Assembly: GCA_963836185.1 (NCBI GenBank)
Contig: CAWIIQ010000001.1
Coordinates: 864,001-928,000, forward strand
From: Candidatus Krumholzibacteriia bacterium
Lineage (GTDB): Bacteria; Krumholzibacteriota; Krumholzibacteriia; Krumholzibacteriales; Krumholzibacteriaceae
Reading direction: 5' to 3'
DNA length: 64,000 nucleotides
Under the pieces are notes generated by a model. The model was not told the origin of the DNA, made no database searches, and was given only the letters and a program-made list of their open reading frames with translations. The translations under genes were made by a program, and so were the position numbers. How positions within the stretch are numbered: the first letter of the stretch is position 1; each line of letters begins with the position of its first letter. Shown here one piece after another: positions 54,169 to 59,451 of the stretch.

Positions 54169-54245
54169 TGGTGGCGGTGCAGGGACTTGAACCCCGGACA
54201 CGCGGATTATGATTCCGCTGCTCTAACCAACTGAGCTACACCGCC
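54169..54245 (-). tRNA. tRNA-Met (CAT), probably elongator
   Basis: GGCGGTGTAGCTCAGTTGGTTAGAGCAGCGGAAT-CAT-AATCCGCG..GTTCAAGTCC..CACCGCCACCA. Confidence 0.95.
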
Positions 54246-58000: not shown

Positions 58001-58074
58001 TGGAGAGTCGTCCAACGGTAGGACAGCTGACTCTGGATCAGCCGATGGGGGTTCGAGTCCTCCCTCTCCAGCCA
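58001..58074 (+). tRNA. tRNA-Gln (CTG)
   Basis: TGGAGAG/CTCTCCA acceptor stem, GCTGA-CT-CTG-GA-TCAGC anticodon arm, GTTCGAG, CCA end. Confidence 0.95.
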
Positions 58075-58085
58075 TTTTTTATCAA

Positions 58086-58160
58086 GGCCCCTTAGTCTAG
58101 TGGTCAGGACGCATGGTTCTCAGCCATGAATCAGGGGTTCGACTCCCCTAGGGGCTACCA
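58086..58160 (+). tRNA. tRNA-Glu (CTC)
   Basis: GGCCCCT/AGGGGCT acceptor stem, CATGG-TT-CTC-AG-CCATG anticodon arm, GTTCGAC, CCA end. Confidence 0.95.
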
Positions 58161-58165
58161 GATAG

Positions 58166-58201
58166 AAGAACCGGCCGCCGTAATGGCAGCCGGTTCTTTT
58201 T
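58166..58201. terminator. Probable bidirectional intrinsic terminator
   Basis: AAGAACCGGC.GCC-GTAAT-GGC.GCCGGTTCTT-TTT between convergent transcription units. Confidence 0.75.
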
Positions 58202-58219: not shown

Positions 58220-58236
58220 AGCGGCGGACCGCCGCT
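58220..58236 (-). promoter_or_regulatory. Candidate bacterial SECIS for the FmdB-family gene
   Basis: AGCGGC-GGTCC-GCCGCT hairpin starting 15 nt after the in-frame TGA at 58252-58254. Confidence 0.5.
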
Positions 58237-58425
58237 CTATCTGAAGGGGTTTCAGCCGAAACCACCCGACGGGGCGCATCCCGAAGCGGAGCTGGCGAAG
58301 ATAGAGAATTCCCTCTCTACGTCGTCGCTTTCGCAGTCGGGGCAGGAGACTCTCTCCGTGGAGTTCATCACGAGCTCCTCGAAGCGCTTCCCGCACGTCT
58401 CGCATCTGTATTCGTACAGCGGCAT
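58237..58425 (-). CDS. FmdB-family zinc-ribbon protein; candidate selenoprotein (57 aa to TGA 58252, 62 aa to TAG 58237)
   Basis: Hand translation MPLYEYRCETCGKRFE..CPDC..GCAPSGGFG-[TGA]-NPFR-TAG; GGAG RBS; absent from the ORF track. Confidence 0.85.
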
Positions 58426-58593
58426 CTATTCTCCTTCGGTTTTCTTTTCTTCCTTCTTTTCTTTATCTTCATACCGGTCCCCGGTATCGCACGTTCCGCT
58501 CATTCAGGTGGGAACGCCCATGCGGGGCAGCACTATCCTCATTATCACGATCCATATCGCAAGAAACAATAAAAGCTGCAGGATCTCACCCAT
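58426..58593 (-). CDS. Small single-TM membrane protein; candidate selenoprotein (UxxxxC)
   Basis: Hand translation MGEILQLLLFLAIWIVIMRIVLPRMGVPT-[TGA]-MSGTCDTGDRYEDKEKKEEKKTEGE-TAG; the readthrough frame ends directly before the next ATG. Confidence 0.75.
58471..58487 (-). promoter_or_regulatory. Candidate bacterial SECIS for the small membrane protein
   Basis: ATACCG-GGGAC-CGGTAT hairpin starting 16 nt after the in-frame TGA at 58504-58506. Confidence 0.6.
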
Positions 58594-58596
58594 TCA

Positions 58597-58983
58597 CTAC
58601 ACTCCCTCTATTACATCGGCCAGCTTGTCGCGGACAATCGCTCCGACCCCCGCGAGGGCCTCGTTTCCTACCACGCTCATCGCGGACATCGGATCTATAG
58701 CGGATACCTCGACGCTTCCATCGTCGGTCTCGCGGACGATGACGTTGCATGGAAGCATAAGGCCCACTCTGTCCTCGGCCTTGAGCGTCTCGTACGCGAG
58801 CGGAGGATTACAGGCTCCGAGTATCCTGTACTGCGTAAACTCGACATCGAGCTTTTTCTTGAGCACCGCTTTGACATCTATGTCGGTCAGTACGCCGAAT
58901 CCCTGCTTCCCGAGCTCCTCGATAGTCTTCGAGACCGCTTCGTCAAAACCCAGTCCGACTCTCTTCGATATATGATAACTCAT
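58597..58983 (-). CDS. DUF302 domain protein
   Basis: GFGVLTDIDV..KKKL..YRILGACNP..GLMLPCNVIV. Confidence 0.9.
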   Translation of the reverse strand: MSYHISKRVGLGFDEAVSKTIEELGKQGFGVLTDIDVKAVLKKKLDVEFTQYRILGACNPPLAYETLKAEDRVGLMLPCNVIVRETDDGSVEVSAIDPMSAMSVVGNEALAGVGAIVRDKLADVIEGV

Positions 58984-59396
58984 TCCGTGTCGCCTCCGGC
59001 CAGCGGCTGATCGGCAGGGGATATACCGGGATCCCCCGCCGGTCGCCGTGGATAAAAACTGCGCAGCGCGTCCAGTCGATCTGTTGCTGTGTCTTCGATC
59101 GATCTGCAGACCATTCGGCAGATATCCTCAGGAAGGGTGCTGGTAAGGCTGTAGAAGATCTTCCTGTGGTCCCGCCGGGTACTGACCAGCTCGTGCCGTC
59201 GCAGTATACTCAGATGTTTCGAAACGCAGGCCTGGCCGTATCCTGTCTCATCGACGATGCAGGAGACGTTTTTTTCTCCGCCGCACAGGCAATGGATTAT
59301 GGCGAGCCTCGCCGGGTCCGACATAGCCCTGAGCCTGCCTGCAATCGCGTCGAAAGTGCCGTTATCGTTTTTCGCGGCCAAGTCTGCTCCTTTCAT
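58980..59396 (-). CDS. ArsR/SmtB family transcriptional regulator (Cys-rich)
   Basis: AMSDPARLAII, VSKHLSILR and IFYSL; true start may be TTG 59381 after AGGAG. Confidence 0.9.
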   Translation of the reverse strand: MKGADLAAKNDNGTFDAIAGRLRAMSDPARLAIIHCLCGGEKNVSCIVDETGYGQACVSKHLSILRRHELVSTRRDHRKIFYSLTSTLPEDICRMVCRSIEDTATDRLDALRSFYPRRPAGDPGISPADQPLAGGDTE

Positions 59397-59451
59397 ATTC
59401 TCATATATTAATATAACAATATGAAAGGTATGTCAAGGAGTTATTTCAGGG

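Follow-up and report, generated by a model that had tools for sequence, protein, structure and literature searches.

The question raised by this locus is whether two small open reading frames (ORFs), each interrupted by an in-frame TGA, encode selenoproteins, and what such a pair might do for its host. The window, i.e. the whole stretch of 64,000 nucleotides (nt) that was analysed, comes from a Candidatus Krumholzibacteriia bacterium (assembly GCA_963836185.1, 3.5 Mb in six contigs) and corresponds to C1:864001-928000, where C1 is contig CAWIIQ010000001.1. Four minus-strand genes follow one another in the order ArsR, DUF302, ORF1, ORF2. A sequence-only reading of this DNA had proposed the last two as small selenoproteins, and we recovered both ORFs and their TGA codons at the positions where it had placed them, as well as the hairpin sequences it had quoted 15-16 nt behind each TGA. 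Judging from the comparisons presented below, both TGAs are very likely decoded as selenocysteine (Sec, U). The features concerned are the following, SECIS denoting a Sec insertion sequence:

58426..58593, minus strand: ORF1, predicted selenoprotein, a single-pass membrane peptide of 55 amino acids (aa) that contains the motif U30-x4-C35 and has a charged, disordered tail (sequence and helix model)
58504..58506, minus strand: in-frame TGA of ORF1 at codon 30, predicted Sec codon (TGA in 30/30 close and 40/40 distant sites)
58471..58487, minus strand: SECIS-like hairpin of ORF1, within the reading frame, 16 nt past the TGA (covariation and fold)
58237..58425, minus strand: ORF2, predicted selenoprotein, a 62-aa FmdB zinc ribbon (CxxC...CxxC) whose Gly/Ser tail ends in C-x7-U-NPFR (TIGR02605, 60.7 bits)
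58252..58254, minus strand: in-frame TGA of ORF2 at codon 58, predicted Sec codon, followed by NPFR and TAG (first stop TGA in 65/65)
58220..58236, minus strand: SECIS-like hairpin of ORF2, 15 nt past the TGA and just after the final stop (covariation and fold)

The four genes are as tightly packed as had been proposed. ArsR (59396-58980) and DUF302 (58983-58597) share 4 nt in an ATGA overlap in which ArsR ends in TGA, a gap of 3 nt separates DUF302 from ORF1 (58593-58426), and ORF2 (58425-58237) begins immediately past the TAG of ORF1. Truncation of both ORFs by gene callers was likewise found, table 11 giving 29 and 57 residues. Both genes are hidden because databases hold these 29-aa and 57-aa truncated products.

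Homologues of ORF1 were compared in a close set, comprising the 30 best matches among 41 genomes, and in a distant set of 40 stretches from 38 genomes, which were hand-picked from 150 listed matches to span genera. Every member of the close set carried one TGA, always at the same codon and followed five codons on by an invariant Cys (codon 35 in ORF1), and third codon positions were the most variable. In this phylum the ORF1 profile had matches at E <=0.01 in 150 of 208 genomes, although a few of the weakest matches may be chance; it matched 87/91 genomes of family f4, 38/42 of f1, 9/13 of f9, 1/23 of f6 and 0/7 of f5. The TGA lay within 146 of the 150 matches listed (of 158), and two of the other four ended just short of it. 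A match with 85% identity in a Candidatus Krumholzibacteriota genome was one of two loci in the named genome collection. Among distant families U and C were separated by four to six residues; the second Cys was missing from a few peptides. One genome held two TGA-bearing membrane peptides 2.7 kb apart, both without Cys at +5 (L126, G048:C186), and another held the whole peptide/zinc-ribbon pair twice (L113 and L114, G168).

When the ORF1 profile was searched against 1.84 billion representative proteins (clusters at 50% identity), 631 matches were obtained at E <=0.001. Among 146 new identifiers from the best 150, the TGA position was occupied by Cys in 99, and 97 of these had a second Cys at +5; together with the invariant Cys at +5 in the close set, this bore out the earlier expectation that homologues would carry Cys in place of the TGA and be conserved past it. 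The remainder had Trp (22), Gly (3), Ser (3), Leu (1) or Arg (1), ended at this point (14) or were unparsed (3). For 53 ORF1 database matches, 34 of the 35 retrieved ended one residue before the TGA and one continued with Cys; the remaining 18 were all 29 aa long. Sources labelled the homologues 'hypothetical protein' and in a few cases AbgT transporter, which is ill-suited to such small peptides, and neither ORF1 nor 20 Cys homologues reached any Pfam or NCBIfam cut-off. Another 21 loci with the Cys form came from metagenomes, where the search pattern required Cys. Such homologues consist of a single continuous frame, many with Cys-rich tails. The Cys form had no match in plasmids, and the sole match of viral contigs to the ORF1 pattern was rejected as the wrong frame of a terminase-like gene. 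A search of the ESM Atlas with the Cys form returned one unnamed cluster at 0.88, which serves as a lead only.

These homologues bear directly on whether the TGAs are recoded at all. If neither were read as Sec, ORF1 would be a 29-aa peptide and translation would resume at the following ATG, or else TGA would encode Trp or Gly in this lineage. An ATG does follow the TGA in 24/30 close loci, and Trp and Gly homologues exist in the databases in the numbers given above. However, 6/30 close loci and most distant loci have a codon other than ATG behind the TGA, the frames of the Cys homologues are continuous, TGA ends ordinary genes including ArsR, and the sole tca tRNA of the genome is tRNA-Sec. 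A change of the genetic code and a stop-restart were therefore both rejected, and we regard this explanation as extremely improbable. The Trp and Gly homologues are probably TGA codons that gene callers read under another code.

Further evidence for recoding came from the RNA behind the TGA. The ORF1 hairpin folds at -10.5 kcal/mol, with 0/200 shuffles as good. Across 29 distinct sequences 92% of the cells in its six pairs were paired, with 34 two-sided changes, 0/500 shuffles reaching either value and slid partners being 20-37% paired, although relatedness of the sequences can inflate such covariation counts. Its codons showed 14 synonymous versus 52 non-synonymous changes, while the codons before the TGA showed 89 versus 37; this scarcity of synonymous changes is as expected if RNA constrains the hairpin codons. 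A loose hairpin test was passed by 30/30 close and 36/40 distant TGA sites (66/70), by 2/16 distinct Cys sites and by 312 of the 2,531 TGA-ending ORFs of the genome (12%); with a stem of >=6 the corresponding numbers were 27, 34, 2 and 147, and a strict shared-hairpin motif occurred at 29 of the 116,172 TGA triplets of the genome, two of which were the ORF1 and ORF2 sites, both motifs and the test window having been set after the candidates and data were seen. Both hairpins were conserved with compensatory changes. SelB would almost certainly read the ORF1 hairpin and insert Sec.

ORF2 belongs to the FmdB family (60.7 bits vs a cut-off of 31.3, TIGR02605 / PF09723), as do 28/28 aligned members, and its four zinc cysteines are invariant as Cys. 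It was present in 30/30 close and 35/40 distant loci. The first stop was TGA in 65/65 of these relatives, and in 65/65 a second stop followed 1-4 codons on, an arrangement found for 419/2,531 ORFs (17%) of the genome background. The nearest Cys of ORF2 stands 8 residues before the TGA; the last Cys of the relatives lies 4-12 residues before the U, and 6/65 allow a UxxC reading. The hairpin behind ORF2 is noncoding and folds at -19 kcal/mol (8/200 shuffles as good). It was found in 58/65 relatives, with 90% of cells paired, 26 two-sided changes (0/500 shuffles reach these values) and a loop GT that never varied. Among the 120 best database homologues, some of which were labelled Zixibacteria, GN15 or Latescibacterota, 88 ended at the TGA point by pattern, plus 22/23 that were classed separately for a nearby Cys. 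As controls, the second FmdB gene of the genome (C1:2234785, another subfamily) ended in TGA-TAA, and the hairpin was seen in 0/18 TGA-ending FmdB-type genes of viral contigs, which came from 43 viral zinc-ribbon loci of other subfamilies (39 parsed) and serve as a negative control only.

Alternatively, only ORF1 might be a selenoprotein; translation of ORF2 would then really end at its TGA, and the hairpin behind it would serve as a terminator or as a stem protecting the 3' end. A noncoding hairpin at the operon end would suit this, only 1-4 poorly conserved codons lie past the TGA, and TGA terminates 2,531 of the 4,304 long ORFs of the genome. A true stop does not account, however, for a TGA in every relative with the second stop always within four codons, far above background, nor for the UxxC cases and the invariant loop GT. 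A U-tract followed just 1/58 hairpins, and a separate terminator lies 20 nt farther on:

58167..58201, no strand assigned: hairpin and T-run 3' of tRNA-Glu on the plus strand, a probable terminator separating the tRNAs from the operon (folds at -28.8 kcal/mol)

This hairpin was absent from the list of a simple terminator scan. We consider a true stop in ORF2 very unlikely, and it is highly probable that SelB reads the ORF2 hairpin and inserts Sec there.

A homologue of ORF2 was also found outside the phylum, in the cultured Thermomicrobium roseum. It ends GGG-TGA-AIRW-TGA, has a GTG-loop hairpin and is annotated as ending at the TGA. Plasmid NC_011961.1 of this species (L189:2642-5563) encodes ArsR, the zinc ribbon, DUF302, an MBL/rhodanese fusion and a rhodanese in this order. 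No selA was found on the plasmid; a supplement table of PMC5029168 records the strain as SelD+ and Sec+ and credits it with five selenoproteins already known.

The Sec machinery on which the earlier proposal depended was present in the genome of the window. We identified selA (E 8e-124), selD with its own in-frame TGA and a bulged hairpin with GGA loop ~20 nt downstream, and tRNA-Sec (71.2 bits, anticodon tca). The selA gene was found in 200/208 genomes of the phylum and in 125/125 of the high-quality ones. The frameshifted stretch C1:45500-49800, outside the window, comprises selB, murA and a prmC-like gene and probably reflects poorly polished assembly.

Several points weigh against the recoding of both codons. 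Sec insertion is a prediction from the DNA sequence. Because the compared genomes are kin, their counts do not represent independent events. At 4/70 ORF1 sites and 7/65 ORF2 sites the hairpin test fails, and a stricter test misses the bulged selD SECIS of the genome itself. Homologues of ORF2 with a Cys-rich tail possibly matching Sec, i.e. clean Cys-for-Sec replacements, are few (2-3/120, two ending in CxxC), and there is little coding conservation to assess past the ORF2 TGA because only 1-4 residues follow. The selB gene at C1:47.9-49.8 kb is split into frameshifted pieces. Compared with a genome of the same genus, single-base insertions were numerous in the selB region and continued into murA and the prmC-like gene upstream of it; a further split gene, tuf-like, lies at C1:71107-71980. 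Because these other genes are broken too and 37/40 relatives had a selB above the family cut-off, the selB frameshifts are probably assembly indels.

With both codons read as Sec, the two genes largely follow the bacterial SelB/SECIS (bSECIS) model as set out in PMC13188914. An in-frame UGA is followed 22-23 nt downstream by the loop (16-37 nt in the model), the loop begins with G and then G/U, the stem has 7-8 bp (4-16 bp in the model), the energies are below -7.5 kcal/mol and, for ORF1, Cys homologues exist. The folding program closes one extra pair, so that the loops are readable as GGA (ORF1) and GTC (ORF2). Unlike in this model as described there, the ORF2 hairpin lies entirely past the final stop. 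The ORF1 family does not appear in the 119-family inventory table of the same paper (PMC13188914, 2026), no entry for a membrane-anchored Sec peptide was found among the bacterial families it lists, and NCBIfam of June 2026 held no model matching ORF1.

The zinc ribbon has published precedent. An FmdB selenoprotein was reported from two GOS sequences with a CxxU motif (PMC2398784, 2008) and is given as UxxU in the later table (PMC13188914, 2026). ORF2 is of the same zinc-ribbon family and has a predicted Sec; it differs from the form described there in that its zinc positions are all Cys with no CxxU spacing and that Sec of the ORF2 type sits in a Gly-rich tail, with 1-4 residues left to the C-terminus, a distinction drawn from the published motif description. 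The text of BSepDB and its one supplement contained no FmdB or zinc-ribbon entry. Neither form was described in the literature covered on FmdB, zinc-ribbon or small membrane selenoproteins, on selenocysteine in Krumholzibacteriota or on families reported from 2023 onwards, a scope that left aside subscription journals and the online BSepDB. ORF1 thus very probably represents a new selenoprotein family, and ORF2 a known family with Sec at a new position, both predicted to use the standard decoding route.

For ORF1 the structure model gave one helix at residues 2-25 and no confident structure beyond (pLDDT, predicted local distance difference test, 65). Homologues had a mean of 2.0 Lys/Arg in the 13 residues around the helix end, with almost no acidic residues, and 0.3 in the first six. 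According to the positive-inside rule the positively charged side of a membrane helix faces the cytoplasm. Because Lys/Arg cluster at the helix end, ORF1 would be oriented N-out/C-in with its U/C pair on the cytoplasmic side near the membrane. In the eukaryotic selenoproteins SELENOK and SELENOS, too, one helix crosses the membrane and Sec sits in a disordered tail in the cytosol. Their resemblance to ORF1 would be an analogy of layout only, the Sec of ORF1 being predicted 5 residues from the helix end and not C-terminal.

The question of which genes belong together, and how they might be controlled, involves four more features:

58980..59396, minus strand: ArsR/SmtB repressor whose helix 2 contains Cys38 and whose helix 5 contains Cys93-x3-Cys97 (NF033788, 69.2 bits vs a cut-off of 55)
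59431..59436, minus strand: TTGACA, probable -35 box of the operon (exact match; most of 20 regions upstream of ArsR have TTGAC(A/T) at this site)
59394..59423, no strand assigned: AT-rich imperfect palindrome of 30 bp that covers the -10 region, a probable operator for ArsR (22/30 positions self-complementary)
58597..58983, minus strand: DUF302 protein, a variable member of the locus (PF03625, 89.5 bits)

Conservation of the operon in relatives, which the sequence-only reading had put forward as a check, was found in part: the ORF1-ORF2 pair is kept, while the four-gene operon is local only. Of the 30 close loci, 3 had an intact DUF302 and 2 had one with an internal deletion; it was not found in the other 25 (3 with little upstream DNA), nor in the 40 distant loci. 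With intact copies in 3/30 close and 0/40 distant loci, DUF302 was ruled out as a core member. In two genomes (L033 and L035; G004 and G006) it was reduced to the first 35 and last 25-35 codons, which suggests an independent or shared deletion in the genus. ArsR preceded the pair in 22/30 close loci (3 with too little upstream DNA), and it was not found within ~3 kb in the sampled loci of f4, the largest family. Because DUF302 is rarely intact and ArsR was not found in the sampled f4 loci, the conserved unit is the pair of ORF1 and ORF2. Seven f9 loci (L130, L136, L138-L142) had ArsR between both selenoprotein genes, with Cys at the SqrR C41 position and in helix 5, which sets their Cys pattern apart from that of the ArsR in the window.

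ArsR probably starts at the TTG at 59381, which is preceded by an AAGGAG ribosome site. The TTGACA was unlisted by the promoter scan because the -10 box is imperfect. The palindrome pattern occurs once in the genome and overlaps the ArsR start, and its ATAT arms were conserved among 10 aligned upstream regions. Autorepression of ArsR via this palindrome is the natural and probable reading. Cys38 was retained in 21, Cys93 in 24 and Cys97 in 27 of 34 ArsR homologues. The best solved matches of the ArsR profile were SqrR, NolR and BigR, with the metal sensors SmtB and NmtR close behind, and the structure model (pLDDT 85) matched redox and metal sensors alike and was not decisive. With SqrR and BigR as top solved matches and cysteines in helices 2 and 5, ArsR resembles these persulfide-sensing repressors as they are described in PMC7315123 and bioRxiv 10.64898/2026.05.15.721447. 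We consider it reasonably likely that ArsR, bound to the palindrome over its own promoter, would be released upon oxidation or persulfidation of its cysteines, thereby inducing the operon.

Gene neighbourhoods offered clues to function. Among the 21 metagenome loci with Cys-form ORF1, which include several near-duplicates and two of which were left out of the examination of neighbours, we found thioredoxin at 6, ArsR at 5, parts of RND efflux systems at 4 and CcdA at 2. Three near-identical loci had DsrE, rhodanese and TauE with a divergent ArsR. DUF302, an ECF sigma factor and an anti-sigma factor occurred once each, and one locus had unrelated neighbours. Homologous loci share rhodanese, TauE and MBL-rhodanese genes with SqrR/BigR operons; dioxygenase and TauE genes are given as marks of persulfide-detoxification operons in PMC7315123, and DUF302 as part of sox clusters in PMC5037610. 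Unlike the SqrR/BigR operons described there, the operon of the window has no dioxygenase or transporter. The rhodanese, DsrE, TauE and thioredoxin neighbours, the T. roseum operon and this persulfide and sox literature are why we favour handling of reactive sulfur. A redox or sulfur-carrier system against reactive sulfur stress has, in our estimate, slightly less than an even chance of being the role of the pair, and the assignment is the weakest step of our explanation, being one of guilt by association.

Two other roles for a pair of selenoproteins were weighed on the same neighbourhoods. The module could bind or transfer soft metals or metalloids (Cu, Ag, Hg, As) with U/C as ligands and ArsR as metal sensor, as its membership in the ArsR/SmtB family, the RND efflux parts at 4/21 Cys-form loci, the Cys-rich tails of many ORF1 homologues and a MATE exporter upstream in 19 loci would suggest. 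The ArsR profile is nonetheless nearest to SqrR, NolR and BigR, albeit narrowly, and arsenic, mercury and P-type ATPase genes were not found among 64 + 14 neighbours scanned, whereas rhodanese, DsrE, TauE and thioredoxin did turn up. The earlier suggestion of 'redox or metal handling' is a reading of neighbours; these speak for reactive sulfur or thiol redox more than for metals, and a metal role appears unlikely. General thiol or peroxide defence that is not specific to sulfur would fit thioredoxin at 6/21 and CcdA at 2 Cys-form loci, as well as a CMD/AhpD-like gene after ORF1 in two f8 genomes, but leaves the rhodanese, DsrE, TauE and MBL-rhodanese neighbours unexplained; we regard it as rather unlikely. 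In these f8 genomes (G059 and G058; L117:2067-2633 and L119:2418-2984) the CMD/AhpD-like gene is split at a stop after ECRY. Peptide and split gene are possibly another two-selenoprotein pair, CMD-like CxxU being a listed family.

The preference for reactive sulfur has to be set against three points. Neighbours within the phylum are housekeeping genes (gltX with tRNAs, metG, rpoA-rplQ) and not sulfur enzymes. RND efflux neighbours are equally compatible with metals. Finally, SqrR C41 aligns with His35 of ArsR and C107 lies ~3 residues past Cys97, by which the cysteine pair is shifted by about one helical turn. An ArsR gene next to several small selenoproteins is also seen in the Tso operon (TsoR, NF045707; families in Table 1 of PMC13188914), from which the present operon differs in that its ArsR scored 47.6 with the TsoR model against a cut-off of 115 and that the TsoA/B/C/X/Y models matched neither ORF.

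Elsewhere in the window the surroundings were ordinary. The locus is flanked by the MATE exporter on one side and a tRNA-Glu/tRNA-Gln/gltX block on the other, with tRNA-Gln and tRNA-Glu at 58001-58074 and 58086-58160 past gltX, and tRNA-Met(cat) at 54169-54245 adjoins a tilS-like gene. Of the RNA runs searched, none contained more than 6% of the words of the stretch. In four runs compared at 85% likeness, relatives were represented by short contigs across ArsR and by fragments elsewhere; as contigs cannot show transcription, these were not used.

If reactive sulfur is indeed handled, the Cys...Sec pair in the flexible tail of ORF2 might take up and pass on sulfane sulfur or electrons and be reset by thioredoxin. 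One may further imagine, as a possible though doubtful extension, that the ORF1 family and the Sec-tailed zinc ribbon form a dedicated two-protein relay for sulfane sulfur or electrons at the inner membrane, and that Sec readthrough of ORF1 also gates translation of ORF2. Such gating is conceivable because the true stop of ORF1 abuts the start of ORF2, and it would make the operon dependent on selenium supply as well as on a sulfur signal.

The recoding mechanism itself is standard, which limits the surprise. At the strength given above, the inventory of bacterial selenoproteins gains one family and, in another, a new place for Sec. Neither FmdB nor DUF302 has a settled function, and the neighbourhoods described here offer a testable one in persulfide handling. 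Because the cultured T. roseum carries the zinc-ribbon half of the pair, this half should be directly testable.

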